DNA from: Puniceicoccales bacterium
GTDB lineage: Bacteria; Verrucomicrobiota; Verrucomicrobiia; Opitutales; JAIRLG01
Direction of reading: 5' to 3'
Assembly (NCBI GenBank): GCA_031279255.1
Contig: JAITIW010000043.1
Span: 1-11,999, forward strand
Length of the DNA stretch: 11,999 nt
The position numbers and the translations under genes are program-made. Below, piece after piece: positions 3,876 through 11,735 of this stretch; position 1 is the stretch's first letter, and each line of letters starts with the position of its first letter. The notes beneath the pieces are model-generated. The model was not told the DNA's origin. It made no database searches and was given only the letters and a program-made list of their open reading frames with translations.

Positions 3876-4769
3876 CTACGATTGGACGGGTGAATTAATT
3901 TTTTTCTCAATTGCGTCATCTCTTTCGGTTTCATGATCGGGAATGAGTACGATCACTTCTTTTAAGGATTGGATTTCGGGAAAGAGCTGGACAAAAGTCT
4001 CTGAGTACTGTTGAGGGTTCGTAGTGAAAGATGAAGTTGTACCATAGTATATTCCATCCGGAAACGTCCCGCTGAGTTCAGAGGAGACGATTTTCAGCTT
4101 ATGGGTCATGATGTCATGAATATCGAGAGGACATTGTGATATTTTCCCTTGGGGGACTTTAAGAGACCAAGGAACTAAGGTTTGGCCTTCATACAGAAAG
4201 GGTCGCATATCTCCTTCCACATGGACGACAGAACGAAAATCGGGACTGGTGATCAGTTCCACCGTAGCACTGTGGCGAGAGACGTGGTGGATTTTCCCAA
4301 CGACTCCATGAGGGCAGATGACGCCCAGGCCTTCTGCGATGCCATCGTCACTTCCCTTGTCGATTTGGATCGCATTCCACCACCACTGAACATCGCGCCG
4401 AAGTACTCGGGCATAGACGTAGCGAAAATGTCGATTTTGTTCCATCGATAAAAAGAGTCCCAGACGCTCCAGCATCTGCTCTTCATAATTTTGTTCCTGG
4501 AGAAGATAGGCATAATACTGACACTGTCGGCGCAGTTTTTCGTTTTCCTGCAGAAGGATCTGCTGTCCGGTCAATCTTGGCCAGATATTCGCCAAAAAGT
4601 GAATGGTTTGGTGGAAAAACTTGTGGACACAAATACTCCCTTCGAAGGGAATTTTGAGCACAAAGGAAAACAAAAATATCAGCGTTCCGGCAGCGCTGTA
4701 TAAGAGAAAATGTCGGTATCGGGAAAGAAAGTTTTTGGACGAGAATCCATCTCTTATTCGTCTAACCAT
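3876..4769 (-). CDS. mreC: rod shape-determining protein MreC
   Basis: The protein has an N-terminal TM segment, a coiled-coil (LQENEKLRRQCQYYAYLLQEQNYEEQMLERL) and an MreC beta-barrel signature (ARVLRRDVQWWWNAIQIDKGSDDGIAEGLGVICPHGVVGKIHHVSRHSATVELITSPDF). I chose the ATG at 4769 (MVRRIRDGF...) over the ORF-track start at 4871, which would overlap mreB by 118 nt. The chosen start overlaps the mreB stop by 16 nt. Confidence 0.8.
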   Translation of the reverse strand: MVRRIRDGFSSKNFLSRYRHFLLYSAAGTLIFLFSFVLKIPFEGSICVHKFFHQTIHFLANIWPRLTGQQILLQENEKLRRQCQYYAYLLQEQNYEEQMLERLGLFLSMEQNRHFRYVYARVLRRDVQWWWNAIQIDKGSDDGIAEGLGVICPHGVVGKIHHVSRHSATVELITSPDFRSVVHVEGDMRPFLYEGQTLVPWSLKVPQGKISQCPLDIHDIMTHKLKIVSSELSGTFPDGIYYGTTSSFTTNPQQYSETFVQLFPEIQSLKEVIVLIPDHETERDDAIEKKINSPVQS

Positions 4770-5797: not shown

Positions 5798-6001
5798 GGC
5801 AGTTTAGAAATGAACTTATGACAGATGATGTTTGCATCACTATGCATTTCGCTGACGGAACGGAAAAAAAGCTTCATGGCAAGTATCCATTTATGGTCTT
5901 TATGGAGGATGGCGTCAACAGTACACATCGCGGGAATGGTAAAATATAGTTGCCGATCAAAAGGATCACATCTCTCAGATCTGGAATTGTGGATGAAACC
6001 A

Positions 6002-6147
6002 GAGGGCATCATCAAATAAAAGGTTAACAAAGGAAAAAGAGAAGAAAATGGAGGGAATGGAGAAAATGACACACAGGAGATACAGATATACCAGATGAAT
6101 GGTGGAACAGGATGCAAAGATTGCTGCCTGATTTTGACGATACCCTT
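6002..6147 (+). mobile_element. 146-bp MITE-like IS5/IS427-type derivative (copy B), about 200 bp upstream of the mreB start
   Basis: The IRs are GAGGGCATCATCAAAT (6002-6017) and AAGGGTATCGTCAAAA (reverse complement of 6132-6147), matching 12/16. CA flanks the left end and TA (6148-6149) the right. The plus strand reads MEKMTHRRYR, then after a frameshift IPDEWWNRMQRLLPDFDDTL*, the same transposase leader as copy A. Confidence 0.75.
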
Positions 6148-6418
6148 TAGTTAAAGAAAAACGTAAAAACCATTCTCCCAGTGACGTTCACCCGAGCGTA
6201 CTTCCGACGCTCGAAGCAGTGTTGTTCATCCTAATCATCAAATTATTTATTGCCTGCCTACTCTCGTTCGCTTTATACTCCTTCAGGCACTTCCCATCTC
6301 CCTAAAAATTCACCTCCAATTACACCTAACTATGAAAAATTCACAATTATCAACCACTATCACCTGAAGGCGATAGTATCGCATAAACGCTTGAAAAGCA
6401 GATTAAAAACATAGAATG

Positions 6419-6775
6419 TCAGAAGTCTGATATTTGAAAATCTCCAGACGTATGATGCACCTCTTGATTTTCTATATATTCTTGAATACCTTTACTGCTC
6501 ACATTTCCCACAGTTACAGCAAAATATCCCTTAGCCCAGGGATGTGATCCCCAATATTTCTTCTTCAATATTTCAAATTCTTGTGGCAGCTTTCGGTTGC
6601 TCTTCCCCTTTATATATTGAACTATTTTAGAATTTCATGCCTCTACATTATACTGAAGTCTTCGCCTAAAGGCGAGGGTGTTTACCTTATTCCACTAAAC
6701 TACATAAAATGCTACGATCTCCCGAGTGAGATTCTATGATCTCTCGGCATCTGTGTGGCGGAAGAGGAGTTTTTT
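6419..6775 (-). pseudogene. decayed IS200/IS605-family Y1 transposase (tnpA) relic
   Basis: An unbroken minus frame at 6419-6634 reads NSKIVQYIKGKSNRKLPQEFEILKKKYWGSHPWAKGYFAVTVGNVSSKGIQEYIENQEVHH...*. This matches the TnpA C-terminal half (SxSKxVxxxKGxSSRxL..EF..LKKK.WG.H.W..gYF..T.G......I..YIENQ). Upstream, in another frame, REIIESHSGDRSILCSLVE* aligns with VEIIE..xxxDHIHxLxxxPP, but the HUH histidines are lost. About 37 extra nt, including the hairpin TCGCC-TAAA-GGCGA (6662-6675), interrupt the two halves. No start codon remains. The relic may extend toward 6865. Confidence 0.6.
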
Positions 6776-6867
6776 ATCCCATGAAGATCTACAGAAACTT
6801 TTTTCAAGGTGCGAGCATCCTCGAGGCTATTTATGGCATATCCACAAAATTTCTATAGAAACTTTTT

Positions 6868-8325
6868 TTAATAACCCTTGGCTTCGCGGGCCCAACGGTA
6901 GACGTCAAGATAACGCCTCGAGGATCGATCCCACGACAGGTCGAGATGCATGGCACGCTGCTGCATCCGGGAAAAATGCTGCGGTCGGTCGTAATAGGTC
7001 GAACAGGCCCATCCGATGGTATCGTAGAGAGCACCGGCGCTGATGTCGCGAAAGACAAATCCAGTACCGTTGCCGCTCTGTTCGTCATAATTCTCGACGG
7101 TATCGGCTAAGCCGCCTGTCTCGCGGACGATGGGAAGCGATCCGTAGTGCATGGCATAGAGTTGTGTCAATCCGCAGGGCTCGAAGCGGCTTGGCATGAT
7201 GATGAAATCAGAAGCCGCTAGGAATCGATGAGATAGAGGGGTATCAAACCCGATGATGGCGTGGCAGCGCTGCGGAAATTGTTGAGCCAAATCGCGAAAT
7301 TGAGACTCTAATGGCCCATCGCCCTGTCCTAAAATCACGATTTGCAGCGCCATGTGCTGTATCAATTCCTGAATAATATTTGCCAAAAGATCGAGGCCTT
7401 TCTGTTCACAAAATCGCGATACGACGGCAAAGCATGGACTATGGATGGCGGATTCCCATCCCCATTGTGCGTAAAGTTCCTGCTTGAGACGATGTTTCCC
7501 CTTCAGGTGAAGGGCATCAAAGGGATGATTCAAAAATGAGTCCTGTTGCGGATTCCATGAGATCGTATCGATTCCGTTGCAGATGCCGATGAGGTCTGCG
7601 GCACGAAAGCGCAGGAGTGAGTCTAGTCCATGGCCATAATCCGGTGTCTGGATCTCCTGGGCATAGCGTGGGCTGACAGTTGTCAATTTTTGGGCAAAAT
7701 ACAATCCGGCCTTGAGCATATGGACTTGATCATAGGCCTCTACGGCATCAGATCGGAAAACATGCCAAGGGATACCCGCGAAATCCAATATGTTTTTCGG
7801 AGCATAGCCGTGATGTTGTAGATTGTGAATCGTAAGTACCGATGCCGAATGACCTAGGATTCGGTCGCGTTCGACGGTCTCGAGGTAAACGGGCAGTAAT
7901 CCCGTTGTCCAATCATGGGCGTGGAAAATATGCGGGATCCATGGTAATTGGTAACAGGCATCTAGGACGGCTCGTGTGAAAAAGACGAAGCGTTCCGGAT
8001 TATCGGAATAATCGCCATAGGCATCGGCGTAAATGGCACGTCCTTGGAAATAGCGTTGATATTCGATAAAATAGAAGCGCAATGATGCCTCTTCCTCACA
8101 TTCCCAGAGACGTGCATAAGATTGACCCATGCCGAGATGAACCGTCAGAGGAGCTTCATGGGCCTTCAGGGGAATTTTTTCTAAAATGCCGTCGTAGAGC
8201 GGCAAAAAAACTCGAACATCGTGCCCTTGTTGGGCGATGCTACGCGCCAAAGCCACTACGGCATCCGCCAACCCTCCTGTTTGAGCCCATGGAGTGCATT
8301 CTGGGCTGATCATCGCGATTCTCAT
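6868..8325 (-). CDS. glgA: glycogen synthase (GT5, ADP-glucose type)
   Basis: The N-terminus MRIAMISPECTPWAQTGGLADAV corresponds to the KTGGLADV motif. The 485-aa length and the C-terminal PSRFEPCGLTQLYAMHYG and GGLADTV motifs fit GlgA. Confidence 0.93.
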   Translation of the reverse strand: MRIAMISPECTPWAQTGGLADAVVALARSIAQQGHDVRVFLPLYDGILEKIPLKAHEAPLTVHLGMGQSYARLWECEEEASLRFYFIEYQRYFQGRAIYADAYGDYSDNPERFVFFTRAVLDACYQLPWIPHIFHAHDWTTGLLPVYLETVERDRILGHSASVLTIHNLQHHGYAPKNILDFAGIPWHVFRSDAVEAYDQVHMLKAGLYFAQKLTTVSPRYAQEIQTPDYGHGLDSLLRFRAADLIGICNGIDTISWNPQQDSFLNHPFDALHLKGKHRLKQELYAQWGWESAIHSPCFAVVSRFCEQKGLDLLANIIQELIQHMALQIVILGQGDGPLESQFRDLAQQFPQRCHAIIGFDTPLSHRFLAASDFIIMPSRFEPCGLTQLYAMHYGSLPIVRETGGLADTVENYDEQSGNGTGFVFRDISAGALYDTIGWACSTYYDRPQHFSRMQQRAMHLDLSWDRSSRRYLDVYRWAREAKGY

Positions 8326-8420: not shown

Positions 8421-8574
8421 AAAGCTTCACATGGTCAGTAGGGATTCTTGGGAAGAATATGGTGTCATTTTAGCTTCCCTCATGAGCGCATCTTGCCAGC
8501 ATCATCCTGCTTGGAAGAATGATCAGCTTTGTTATACGCATCTTGATACCCATAGAGAAAAGGAGTGTTTATTC

Positions 8575-10695
8575 ATGAATTCAAAGAATGAAATTTCTGC
8601 CGATACGAGGAAAATGGTTCTCAGCGATCATCCCTTTCTCGATACCTCATGGCCTATCCAGTGGTCTCGACTGCAACCGTGCTATGTGGTGGAAGATATT
8701 CGCCTGGCACTTCAAGAAGCCTCTTCTAAATTGGAAGCACTTGAACAGGTAGCGTTCGATGATCTCAGTTGGGATCATACGCTCGAGCCACTACTCCATT
8801 TTGATGATGTGTTAAAACAGGCGTGGGCCAAAGTTCATCACCTAAACAGTGTCTGCGATTCGGAAGATCTGCGAAAAGCTTATTTGGAAGTCCTGCCGGA
8901 GGTGACACAGTTTTATACCTCCATTCCTTTCAGGACGCGGCTGTGGAAGCTCATCCAGGCTTATGCCGCTACGGAGGAAGCTCAGCAGCTACCAGAAGTG
9001 CGTAAGCGCTATCTCCAAAGGACGATGGAAGGATTTGTGGACAGTGGCGCTGATTTGGAACCGGAGAAAAAAGCACGTATTCTGGAAATCGAGCAGCGAC
9101 TTTCTTTCCTGGCCAATCAGTTTGGGAAAAATGTCTTGGATGCGAAAAATGCATGGACTTATGATGCGACGCAAGAAGAACTTCAGGGACTACCGGAGTC
9201 CGTTCTGCGGACATTGCAGCGGATAGGTTCCAAGAATGAGCGCTACCGCTTGACTCTACAGGCGCCTTGTTTTGGTCCGTGTATGCAGTATTTAGAAAAT
9301 CGGGCCCTAAGGCAGAAACTTTGGAAGGCTTATATGACTGTCGGCCGCGAGGCACCCTATGACAATATGCCTTTAATTCGAGAAATTTTATCGCTGAGCG
9401 AGGAACATGCCCATATTTTGGGTGAGCCAACCCATGCCGATTGTGTCCTGCGGCGACGTATGGCCAAAAGTGGTCAACAGGCTTTGCAGTTCATTGAAGA
9501 TCTGCATCGACGTATAGAGAAATTTTTTCACCGGGATGTGCAAAAGTTGCAAGATTTTTATCATGAACAGACCGATGACCCGGATGGCATGAGGTCGTGG
9601 GATGCGGCCTATTGGAGCGAAAAGCTGTGCCAACAGCTTTATCATTTTGATGAAGAAGCACTGCGCCCTTACTTCGCCATTGAGGCTGTCATTCAGGGAC
9701 TTTTTTCAGTAGCCGAGAAATTGTACGGTATCCGCATCCGGGAATGTCCGACGGAAACGACATGTCCGCCAGAAGCGGCGGTCAGAGCGATTCCCGTATG
9801 GCACGAAAGTGTCAAGTTTTACGAGGTTTTTGAGGCTTCTGGGAACTATATTGGGGCCTTTTACGCGGATTGGTTCCCGAGACCTAGTAAACGCGGCGGT
9901 GCGTGGATGGAAAACCTCATCACCGGTCATCGAAATGCCAATGGAATGTATCAATATCCCATTGGTATCATCTGTGGGAATCTCACACCTCCTTCGGCGG
10001 AGCACCCGTCCTTACTCACTCACCAAGAAGTCCTTACGATTTTCCACGAGTTTGGTCATCTTCTACATGGATTGTTTGGGAAAGTGGATATCGAAGGTAT
10101 CAATGCGACCCATGTGGTCTGGGATTTTGTGGAACTTCCGTCGCAATTGATGGAAAATTTTGGCTGGGATCGGAAGAGTTTGGATCTCTTTGCGCGACAT
10201 TACGAGACAGGGAAGAGAATTCCGAAAAAATTGTTTCAGGCGATGCGGTCGGCACGCCATCACCTTTCAGGGATGAGTATGATGAAGCAGCTTTCTCTGA
10301 GTAAATTAGACCTCGAGCTGTATCATCATTACGAGCAGTATCGAGATGTCCATTGGGAGGAAAATCTGCAGAAGACGTTAGTTCCCTACCGTCCGCCGTG
10401 GAATGTCGATACGCCCAGTATCTTGGCACAATTCGATCATATCTTTGATGGGGGATACGATGCGGGCTATTATTCTTATATCTGGGCCCAGGTTTTGGAG
10501 GCGGATGCCTTCAGTGCCTTTGAGAAGAGAGGGATCTTGGACCCGGAAACAGGGAATCGTTTCCGCCATTGTATCCTCAGTCAGGGTGATTTGTGCGATG
10601 CGGGTCAGCTCTATCGTGATTTCATGGGCCGTAATCCGGATCCGGAAGCGCTACTCAAGCGTGAGCATTTATGGGAGGTTCCCTTGGAACGCTAA
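8575..10695 (+). CDS. prlC: oligopeptidase A (M3 family zinc metallopeptidase)
   Basis: The HEFGH zinc motif (TIFHEFGHLLHGLF), ELPSQLMENF, GGYDAGYYSYIWAQVL and overall colinearity with OpdA support the call. I chose the ATG at 8575, which follows AAGGAG (8560-8565) by 9 nt and aligns with the OpdA N-terminus. The ORF-track start at 8431 adds 48 unsupported residues. Confidence 0.9.
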   Translation: MNSKNEISADTRKMVLSDHPFLDTSWPIQWSRLQPCYVVEDIRLALQEASSKLEALEQVAFDDLSWDHTLEPLLHFDDVLKQAWAKVHHLNSVCDSEDLRKAYLEVLPEVTQFYTSIPFRTRLWKLIQAYAATEEAQQLPEVRKRYLQRTMEGFVDSGADLEPEKKARILEIEQRLSFLANQFGKNVLDAKNAWTYDATQEELQGLPESVLRTLQRIGSKNERYRLTLQAPCFGPCMQYLENRALRQKLWKAYMTVGREAPYDNMPLIREILSLSEEHAHILGEPTHADCVLRRRMAKSGQQALQFIEDLHRRIEKFFHRDVQKLQDFYHEQTDDPDGMRSWDAAYWSEKLCQQLYHFDEEALRPYFAIEAVIQGLFSVAEKLYGIRIRECPTETTCPPEAAVRAIPVWHESVKFYEVFEASGNYIGAFYADWFPRPSKRGGAWMENLITGHRNANGMYQYPIGIICGNLTPPSAEHPSLLTHQEVLTIFHEFGHLLHGLFGKVDIEGINATHVVWDFVELPSQLMENFGWDRKSLDLFARHYETGKRIPKKLFQAMRSARHHLSGMSMMKQLSLSKLDLELYHHYEQYRDVHWEENLQKTLVPYRPPWNVDTPSILAQFDHIFDGGYDAGYYSYIWAQVLEADAFSAFEKRGILDPETGNRFRHCILSQGDLCDAGQLYRDFMGRNPDPEALLKREHLWEVPLER

Positions 10696-10717
10696 GTCTA
10701 TGTGCGCTAAAGTGCAA

Positions 10718-10850
10718 AAAAACGGGAAGTTATTTCCGCCATTACATTCTCGTCAGGGCGATTTGCGCGATGCGGATCAACTCTACCGCGATTTCATGGG
10801 CCGTGACCCGGATCCAGAAGCGTTGCTCAAGGTGAGCATTTGTAAGAGGA
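10718..10850 (+). pseudogene. diverged duplicate of the prlC 3' end (last ~40 codons), with two 1-nt deletions
   Basis: This region aligns with 10546-10683 at about 80% nucleotide identity. The reconstructed reading is YFRHYIL.QGDLRDADQLYRDFMGRDPDPEALLK(R)EHL*, against RFRHCILSQGDLCDAGQLYRDFMGRNPDPEALLKREHLW in the gene. The single-base gaps fall at about 10751/10752 and 10831/10832. Confidence 0.8.
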
Positions 10851-11076
10851 TCCATCGGAGCATTGAGCCCCATATATTAGACATTTTTCGAAACGAAGAT
10901 AAGTGTGATAAAGTGATAATTGTTTTGAGAGATAAGTAGGAGGTATTTGAGTTAAAAAGATTTATTAACAGAAGAATTTTGTCGTTTAATAGACATTTTA
11001 ATACCGTTTCGAAAGAGGTCTATTGAGTCCTATCAATGTATATCGAGCCTATGTATCAAGACGTACGCCTTGCCGG

Positions 11077-11150
11077 TGGCCGTCTTTGCACGGCTAAAGC
11101 CGTGTGATCCGCTATGCGGATGAGCCCCTTCGGGGCTCCAAAGACGGCCA
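11077..11150. other. perfect four-way-junction (cloverleaf-like) structure; RNA or ssDNA element of unknown function
   Basis: The outer stem TGGCCGTCTTTG (11077-11088) pairs with CAAAGACGGCCA (11139-11150) over 12 bp. It encloses three abutting perfect hairpins: CACGGC-TAAA-GCCGTG (11089-11104), ATCCGC-TAT-GCGGAT (11107-11121) and GAGCCCC-TTC-GGGGCTC (11122-11138). That gives 31 Watson-Crick pairs in 74 nt, with only TG unpaired at the junction. Confidence 0.7.
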
Positions 11151-11181
11151 AAGAAACAAAGAAAGCAAAGATGACCAAAGA
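11139..11181. repeat. five CAAAGA motifs at about one helical turn spacing
   Basis: CAAAGA begins at 11139, 11149, 11157, 11166 and 11176, giving spacings of 10, 8, 9 and 10 nt. The first motif is also the 3' strand of the outer stem of the four-way junction. Confidence 0.7.
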
Positions 11182-11349
11182 AAAATTGATGGACAGTCGT
11201 AAAATGCTCCTATCGCAAAGAAAAGCTAGTAGGCAGCAATAAATTGATGAGTGGCAGAGGAACGTTTTGCCGCAAAGAAAAGTTGATGGACAGTCGTGAA
11301 ACATTTTTTCCACAAAAAAATTAGTAGGCAGCCGTGAAACGTTTTTACC
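11176..11349. repeat. ~96-nt tandem duplication built from related 30-40-nt subunits, upstream of rplU
   Basis: TTGATGGACAGTCGT is exact at 11186-11200 and 11283-11297 (97 nt apart). TAGTAGGCAGC is exact at 11227-11237 and 11322-11332 (95 nt apart). The subunits share CAAAGAAAA-(T/C)T(A/G)(A/G)T(A/G)G..CAG..CGT(G/A)AAAC(G/A)TTTT. Confidence 0.75.
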
Positions 11350-11417
11350 ATTCGCTTTAAAAATAAATCTTGCTTCCTGTCAGAGACGCCATTGTATCGC
11401 TCCCATTAACATAAGCT

Positions 11418-11735
11418 ATGAAGGCGATTGTCGAGATACAGGGGAAACAGCTGACGGTTTCGGAAGGAAATATTTTCTTCGTCAATCGCTATGCCAATTC
11501 CCAAGCAGGCGATTCTGTAGAGCTAAAAGAAGTCCTTATGCTGGGAGAGGGTTCCGAAGCGAAAATCGGAAATCCCTATGTCCCCGATGCCTGCGTTCGC
11601 ATCCATATCCTCGAGAATAAGCGGGGCAAGAAGGTAGTTGTTTTCAAGAAAAAACGCCGTAAGGGTTATGAACGCAAGCGCGGGCATCGCCAGGAATTAT
11701 CGGTGATTAAGGTGGAATCGATTGTGGCTTCGTAA
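11418..11735 (+). CDS. rplU: 50S ribosomal protein L21
   Basis: MKAIVEIQGKQLTVSEG...KKRRKGYERKRGHRQELSVIKVESI is a typical L21 of 105 aa, followed by rpmA. Confidence 0.93.
   Translation: MKAIVEIQGKQLTVSEGNIFFVNRYANSQAGDSVELKEVLMLGEGSEAKIGNPYVPDACVRIHILENKRGKKVVVFKKKRRKGYERKRGHRQELSVIKVESIVAS

Follow-up and report, generated by a model that had tools for sequence, protein, structure and literature searches.

We found that a perfectly paired 74-nt element between prlC and rplU in a Puniceicoccales contig (JAITIW010000043.1 of assembly GCA_031279255.1; its 11,999 nucleotides are referred to throughout as the window) is probably one copy of a lineage-specific, dispersed and modular family of nested-palindrome DNA repeats in a narrow Puniceicoccales clade. 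Copies of this family are dispersed, stand in both orientations, shuffle their modules, form nested composites, are present or absent at given sites and show compensatory Watson-Crick pairing. An earlier sequence-only reading of the window had proposed a structured RNA or ribosomal protein leader, a folded single-stranded DNA substrate, or palindromic mini-repeats inserted into each other; the dispersed copies, shared modules and nested composites make the last of these the best-supported option.

Results

The element folds as a four-way junction on both strands

The element (window 11077-11150) consists of the outer 5' arm TGGCCGTCTTTG, hairpin H1, an unpaired TG, hairpins H2 and H3, and the outer 3' arm CAAAGACGGCCA, in that order (Table 1; labels such as L006 denote loci from relatives). 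Folding of both strands confirmed every detail of the four-way junction described earlier, a 12-bp stem around perfect hairpins of 6, 6 and 7 bp. All 31 of its 31 pairs are Watson-Crick and none is G-U. For the + strand folded as RNA, the minimum free energy structure is also the centroid (-50.6 kcal/mol, z = -8.3; 0 of 200 dinucleotide shuffles were as good), and the - strand gives the mirror image (-51.3 kcal/mol, z = -8.9). DNA parameters return the identical fold, at -32.9 and -33.4 kcal/mol (z about -9.9). The element sequence is unchanged in a near-identical contig of the Logan assembly of run SRR14710901, which may come from the same sample as the window.

The outer-stem arm serves as the element's terminal inverted repeat, and the inner end of its 5' copy, CTTTG, shows no variation across the family. 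H1 is the variable module and is far longer in most other copies. A degenerate extra copy of the 3' arm follows the element; GACGGCC recurs in the equivalent downstream region of L006, and partial arm duplicates are found beside other family copies too (for example, L010:3531-3560).

Table 1. Positions of the element's parts, of family copies in relatives, and of associated spacers and repeats.
Feature	Location	Description
Outer stem, 5' arm	window 11077-11088	TGGCCGTCTTTG; pairs with 11139-11150 (12 bp)
Hairpin H1	window 11089-11104	CACGGC-TAAA-GCCGTG; 6 bp, loop TAAA
Junction	window 11105-11106	TG, 2 unpaired nt in the predicted fold
Hairpin H2	window 11107-11121	ATCCGC-TAT-GCGGAT; 6 bp, loop TAT
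Hairpin H3	window 11122-11138	GAGCCCC-TTC-GGGGCTC; 7 bp, loop TTC
Outer stem, 3' arm	window 11139-11150	CAAAGACGGCCA
Degenerate extra 3'-arm copy	window 11166-11177	CAAAGATGACCA; 2 mismatches, 27 nt downstream
Family copy	L006:354-462	fold/architecture scan
Family copies	L007:2792-2899, 9022-9129	fold/architecture scan
Truncated family copy at contig end	L007:1-75	fold/architecture scan
Family copies	L008:1140-1241, 4000-4107, 8005-8101, 12686-12809	fold/architecture scan
Family copies	L010:3571-3669, 7246-7359, 8977-9055	fold/architecture scan
Nested composite, 205 nt	L010:4493-4697	one family copy inside another, inverse orientation
Family copy in NCBI MAG GCA_031288595.1	L017:5464-5560	fold/architecture scan
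prlC-rplU spacer, L006	contig ends 182 nt past peptidase stop	same element, 30 nt past peptidase stop
prlC-rplU spacers, L007 and L009	51-61 nt	without element; CTTGCTTYC motif only
prlC-rplU spacers, L008 and L010	267-283 nt	97-99-nt element, same architecture, sequence largely different (another subfamily)
Second repeat family	window ~1693-1850, ~5905-6147; L007:2943-3085, L007:~8780-8940	~150-165 nt, inverted ends GAGGRTGTCGTCAAA / TTTGACGACRCCCTC

Elements of the same architecture are dispersed in the clade

We searched the clade sequence by folding in sliding windows and by an architecture scan seeded on inverted repeats, which required a perfect outer stem of 8 bp or more, 2 or more enclosed branches and pairing of at least 78% of bases. 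In about 88 kb this design turned up about 16 times, always between genes. Among the controls, the architecture scan detected none in unrelated genomes (29.6 kb) and 2 in block-shuffled sequence (297 kb). With the shuffled folds given above, these counts uphold the earlier judgement that the structure is far beyond chance; a chance origin is excluded. Neither the architecture scan nor the covariance model described below detected an element in 54.6 kb from the next-nearest Opitutales relatives (L013-L015).

Within the clade, the source genome has one copy in its 12-kb window contig and relatives have 2-4 copies per 7-14 kb, so that the dispersed copies that would make the element a generic palindromic repeat are found in relatives. 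A further 10.9 kb of the L006 organism (L016) held no copy. Density is lower in the low-GC members (window and L006/L016, about 1 per 10 kb) than in the higher-GC L008 and L010 (about 1 per 3 kb). Modules of exact A type (H1 CACGGC, H2 ATCCGC) were seen only here and at the L006 orthologue.

Most copies lie 20-130 nt past a stop codon in co-directional spacers, and two lie between divergent genes (L007:9022, and L017:5464 between rpsA and mreB). Orientation relative to transcription is about 50:50 across the family, and in the spacer downstream of yebC the copies of L006 and L007 are oppositely oriented. Orthologous spacers are polymorphic, with the element present or absent. The composite in L010 consists of two copies, nested or recombined, that fold at -166 kcal/mol, and the orthologous region of L008 is without it. 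In addition, L007 ends inside a family copy and L006 ends 76 nt after one, which fits repeats breaking short-read assemblies.

Searches of wider collections placed no copy elsewhere. The outer-stem pattern had 4 matches in contigs of species-representative genomes, all unrelated chance matches, and the clade is evidently absent from that set. The A-type H2+H3 pattern had no match in metagenome contigs, L006 included, which shows that this collection is without these JGI samples; a degenerate family pattern gave 2 chance matches there, in GC-rich coding DNA. Viral contigs, plasmids and phages contained no match to the element, and translations of its open frames, used as protein queries for spurious ORFs over copies, had none either, though this last outcome carries no weight. 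In the literature we found no account of such elements in Puniceicoccales.

The window copy is homologous to the others and shares their modules

The window copy is a homologue of the other copies, beyond a shared look. A covariance model (R1) built from six other copies, with those of the window and L006:7017 left out, matched window 11074-11151 on the + strand over its full length (model positions 1-108; 35.5 bits, E 9e-7), and in 55 kb R1 recovered 11 family copies with E<1e-5. When 8 copies are aligned with MAFFT, the CTTT...AAAG ends are invariant, and the H2 core CCGC-N3-GCGG, the G and C that frame H3 and the H3 stem GAGCCC are conserved. Compared with the common GGCCCGC-NNN-GCGGGCC, the window H2 (GATCCGC...GCGGATG) carries two compensatory pair changes. 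The outer arm of the window, GGCCGTCTTTGCA, is one base apart from that of L010:4496, GGCCGGCTTTGCA.

Modules are also mixed between copies. The GAGCCCC module of H3 recurs at L006:433, L007:2871, L007:9036 and L008:12696, and L006:354, for example, combines an H3 of the window type with an H2 of the L008/L010 type.

A further subfamily, type "C", is marked by the outer stem GGCGCGAYGGCC (L006:3159-3199, L008:4000-4107 and L008:1140-1241). Its member at L006:3159-3199 is a plain 41-nt hairpin, and that at L008:4000-4107, in the orthologous glgA-yidC spacer, has the same outer stem with two extra hairpins; elements therefore grow by gaining hairpins. At L008:1140 the H2 arms match the 7 innermost nt of the outer stem, and the window H1 (CACGGC/GCCGTG) is 5/6 identical to the element's own outer arm (GACGGC/GCCGTC). 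As judged from such sequences, there are hints that new hairpins may arise by local template switching.

Pairing is maintained without strand bias

Pairing in the family is actively maintained. We found that 95.7% of alignment cells were paired and that 8 of 19 pairs had double-sided changes, a level reached in 0 of 500 shuffles. Across 14 elements, G-U pairs numbered about 9 when the + strand was read and about 7 for the - strand among about 610 pairs, with 98-99% of pairs Watson-Crick, and the two strands of family elements were equally stable. An excess of G-U pairs on the sense strand, the sign of RNA-level selection, was sought in these 14 elements and no bias was seen (6 on the strand transcribed by the upstream gene, 8 on the opposite one). 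Pairing that is Watson-Crick only, strand-symmetric and independent of orientation argues for selection or generation at the level of DNA and not of a strand-specific RNA.

The prlC-rplU spacer differs among relatives

The M3 peptidase gene (oligopeptidase-A-like; 8431-10695) ends upstream of the element, and rplU, encoding L21 (11418-11735), follows it and is itself followed by rpmA. The gap of 267 nt from the 3' end of the element to the rplU ATG agrees with the roughly 270 nt noted earlier. Five JGI relatives have peptidases of 67-75% identity (next matches, at most 49%), and the order glgA<- ->peptidase->rplU->rpmA is kept in relatives. All genomes compared retain CTTGCTTYC about 45 nt ahead of the rplU ATG; the motif sits downstream of the element and is presumably the rplU promoter region.

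The element itself varies at this site: an orthologue is found in L006, L008 and L010 have a different subfamily, and it is absent from L007 and L009, which counts against the dedicated functional RNA considered by the sequence-only reading. Filled sites have extra sequence on both sides compared with empty ones, such that the insertion boundary is not definable.

Where the element is shared, it is conserved above the neutral level. The window and L006 elements agree at 70/74 positions (95%), compared with 51% at 4-fold sites of the peptidase gene and 60% in the 30-nt upstream flank. Their stems are identical apart from the outermost pair, which changes from T-A to G-C, and the other differences are 1 base in loop 1 and 1 base in loop 3. 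Likewise, the orthologous elements of L008 and L010 are 85% identical, against 67% at peptidase 4-fold sites and 63-66% in the flanks. This comparison of 95% with about 51% hints at constraint. Static, purely selfish copies should decay faster, which argues for some constraint that is host-level or based on conversion. Arm-to-arm correction keeps pairing and not sequence, and the fixed orthologous copies would therefore reflect either host-level constraint or repeated conversion from conserved master copies.

The spacer also has a history of local duplication. Right after the true stop, window 10700-10868 repeats the final ~170 nt of the M3 peptidase gene in tandem, in decayed form, and still reads ...LYRDFMGRDPDPEALLK in another frame. 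It is followed at ~10870-11045 by an AT-rich insert of ~175 nt with 18-nt inverted ends (TAGACATTTTTCGAAACG / CGTTTCGAAAGAGGTCTA), bracketed by GAGCC...GAGCC. This insert looks MITE-like, is missing from the orthologous L006 spacer and, taken whole, folds no better than usual. Downstream of the element, window 11151-11350 holds 4-5 tandem A-rich units of ~38 nt with the cores TTGATGGACAGTCGT or TAGTAGGCAGC, and GAAACGTTTTT; L006 has a single unit. Unit 1 (TTGATG-N18-CTATCG) is similar to the motif upstream of rplU (TTGCTT-N19-GTATCG), and the units may be duplicated promoter-like or UP-like sequence.

Comparison with known systems

Like the L21 leader (RF00559) or an intrinsic terminator, the element is placed after the 3' end of one gene and before the rplU operon, and its structure is similarly stable and GC-rich. 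It differs from them in having no Rfam match and no U-tract, in being dispensable in L007 and L009, and in having copies beside unrelated genes. No Rfam family, the L21 leader included, matched at gathering or permissive thresholds in the window and four loci; of the matches overlapping the element, the best, PyrR208, scored 18 bits where the gathering score is 64. ARAGORN and the Rfam tRNA model reported nothing at 11077 and located three true tRNAs in other parts of the window. The earlier statement that the element belongs to no recognised RNA family and is not a tRNA thus stands, as does the statement that it is unlike a simple terminator: there were 0 terminator-like sites in 10600-11500, the stem is followed by an A-rich run and no T/U-tract, and several family copies are preceded by a T-run and followed by an A-run, the reverse of terminator order.

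In other respects the family is similar to REP, BIME and REPIN elements, which are likewise short, GC-rich, extragenic palindromes, dispersed in both orientations, composite or clustered, divided into lineage-specific subfamilies and mostly downstream of genes. One account of REPs describes families with a GTAG or CGTC tag and reports Opitutus terrae, which belongs like this clade to the class Opitutae, as rich in GTAG REPs (PMC3733652). REPs, however, are single imperfect hairpins of 20-40 nt or inverted doublets, whereas the units described here measure 74-125 nt and hold three hairpins within a terminal stem, forming a four-way junction from essentially perfect stems. They have no unpaired GTAG or CGTC tag and no conserved unpaired tetranucleotide at either end (in the window, CGTC takes part in the outer stem, and other family members do not conserve it), and the flanks of 11 copies contained no conserved tag. 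REPs and REPINs are mobilised by RAYTs, whereas the gene tables of the examined loci listed no RAYT (IS200/IS605-like Y1) gene.

MITEs (Correia/CREE, ERIC, RUP, Nezha) have in common with the family that they are non-coding, shorter than 300 nt, bounded by terminal inverted repeats of 12-15 bp, dispersed between genes and polymorphic for presence; contigs also break at copies (L007 starts inside one). In contrast to MITEs, the copies have no target-site duplication (no direct repeat flanked 11 copies), the examined loci showed no parent insertion sequence with matching ends, and the interior is self-complementary and modular and not the remnant of a deleted transposase. No transposase gene of any kind stood beside a copy in the ~88 kb of clade loci.

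The proposal of a folded single-stranded DNA substrate may hold in part. It is compatible with the DNA-type symmetry of the pairing, but the systems named with it do not fit: attC sites and IS200/IS605 ends are set apart by the perfect, bulge-free stems and by the lack of a nearby integrase or TnpA gene, and Xer sites do not fit either. The nearest structural analogue, by resemblance only, may be the T-shaped terminal repeat (ITR) of parvoviruses such as AAV, in which an outer stem likewise encloses abutting perfect mini-hairpins. The AAV ITR has 3-nt loops, about one unpaired junction base and a DNA fold that is equal on both strands, and it is recognised by an HUH endonuclease. Its two internal hairpins make a three-way junction, and it sits at the termini of a linear single-stranded viral genome, whereas the present elements have three internal hairpins and are chromosomal, intergenic and multi-copy; no Rep gene and no viral, plasmid or phage match accompanied them.

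Discussion

In the mechanism that we propose, the terminal inverted repeat of 12-15 bp, ending CTTTG/CAAAG, would close a four-way junction round three independent hairpins on either strand once it is single-stranded. The family would be non-autonomous selfish DNA of the REP/REPIN/MITE kind, and its relevant form would be folded DNA, as a single-stranded hairpin or an extruded cruciform, and not a strand-specific RNA. Recognition in trans by a structure-specific enzyme is probable. Our best guess for this enzyme, offered tentatively, is a hairpin-binding HUH/Y1 transposase of the RAYT/IS200 type. Counting against this mechanism, the clade loci showed no transposase gene next to a copy, no target-site duplication and no flanking tag, and orthologous copies are conserved above the neutral level. 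At the present locus, ahead of the conserved rplU motif, the element would belong to the 3' region of the peptidase transcript and could be at most a passive barrier (a 3'-end stabiliser or insulator); we infer that it is not a regulator of rplU.

A doubtful but serious alternative is that the family is kept mainly for an orientation-free host role in RNA, as a very stable 3' UTR structure that halts 3'-to-5' exonucleases or else ends or insulates transcription; at this locus, it would set prlC apart from rplU-rpmA, a strongly expressed operon. The usual placement of copies shortly after stop codons in co-directional spacers is what such a role predicts, equal folding of the strands would make either orientation usable, and the orthologous copies are conserved beyond neutral sites. 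REPs of E. coli, which are said to function in mRNA stabilisation and termination (PMC3733652), provide a precedent. Against this role, an RNA structure should tolerate G-U pairs, yet these make up ~1.3% of pairs and show no sense-strand bias. Furthermore, no U-tract follows the stem and the T-run and A-run of several copies are in the wrong order, two copies occupy divergent promoter spacers into which no gene reads, and close relatives manage with a spacer of 51-61 nt that has no element.

It is unlikely, though conceivable, that the elements represent a new class of structured genomic DNA module, with a four-way fold resembling a Holliday junction as the active form. This idea is raised mainly because the window and L006 copies are 95% identical against a neutral level of ~51%, with loop and compensatory changes only. 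It is possible to frame such a class in two ways: as a new non-autonomous mobile element with an enzyme that reads a four-way single-stranded junction, or as host-domesticated copies selected at fixed loci such as prlC-rplU to act as topological or transcriptional insulators.

Quite improbable, in our view, is a structural module of host DNA in which extrusion of a cruciform or four-way junction absorbs supercoiling, or which binds HU, IHF or gyrase, as proposed for REP/BIME. Strand-symmetric Watson-Crick-only pairing with compensatory changes, placement regardless of orientation and conservation of orthologous copies beyond the neutral level would all suit such a module, and REPs and HU offer a precedent (PMC4550694). 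However, presence/absence polymorphism and nested or composite copies resemble mobile DNA and not placed regulatory sites. In addition, extrusion from duplex DNA is poor when arms are as short as 6-7 bp.

There is very little probability left for a dedicated cis-regulatory leader of rplU-rpmA or a small RNA gene, a reading that was suggested by the position upstream of rplU, the great stability and the conservation in L006, and that is already largely refuted. The element has no match in Rfam, the L21 leader included, and G-U pairs are nearly absent from the family; its homologues stand beside unrelated genes in both orientations; and CTTGCTTYC, downstream of the element, is the only upstream sequence kept in L007 and L009, whose spacers without an element also count against a generic ribosomal protein leader. 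A chance palindrome or assembly artefact, for which nothing speaks beyond the metagenome assembly as source, has a negligible probability given z values of -8 to -10, the identical sequence in a second assembly and the orthologous copy that an independent JGI sample contains, which differs in loops and by compensatory changes only.

We also observed a second dispersed repeat of ~150-165 nt, with the inverted ends GAGGRTGTCGTCAAA / TTTGACGACRCCCTC, that is common to the window genome and L007. The window contains 3 near-matches to its end sequence where 0.07 would be expected. In L007 the two four-way elements have ~300-400 nt of flanking repeat in common, the second family included. Window 5798-6867 (~1 kb, between mreB and glgA) contains no convincing gene and is a synteny break with a diverged copy of the second repeat family; relatives have yidC-yebC after glgA.

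The reading that we prefer, a dispersed family of nested-palindrome DNA repeats, removes a false lead, as a striking "perfect cloverleaf" before a ribosomal protein operon is not a new riboregulator. It also adds an apparently undescribed repeat family, with a near error-free four-way design and modular hairpins, to an under-studied verrucomicrobial clade. Repeats of this kind break up metagenome assemblies, and they can also give rise to spurious ORFs and lengthen intergenic spacers. Should fixed copies prove to be conserved above the neutral level across whole genomes, the family would be well suited to studying how palindromic repeats are maintained or domesticated.
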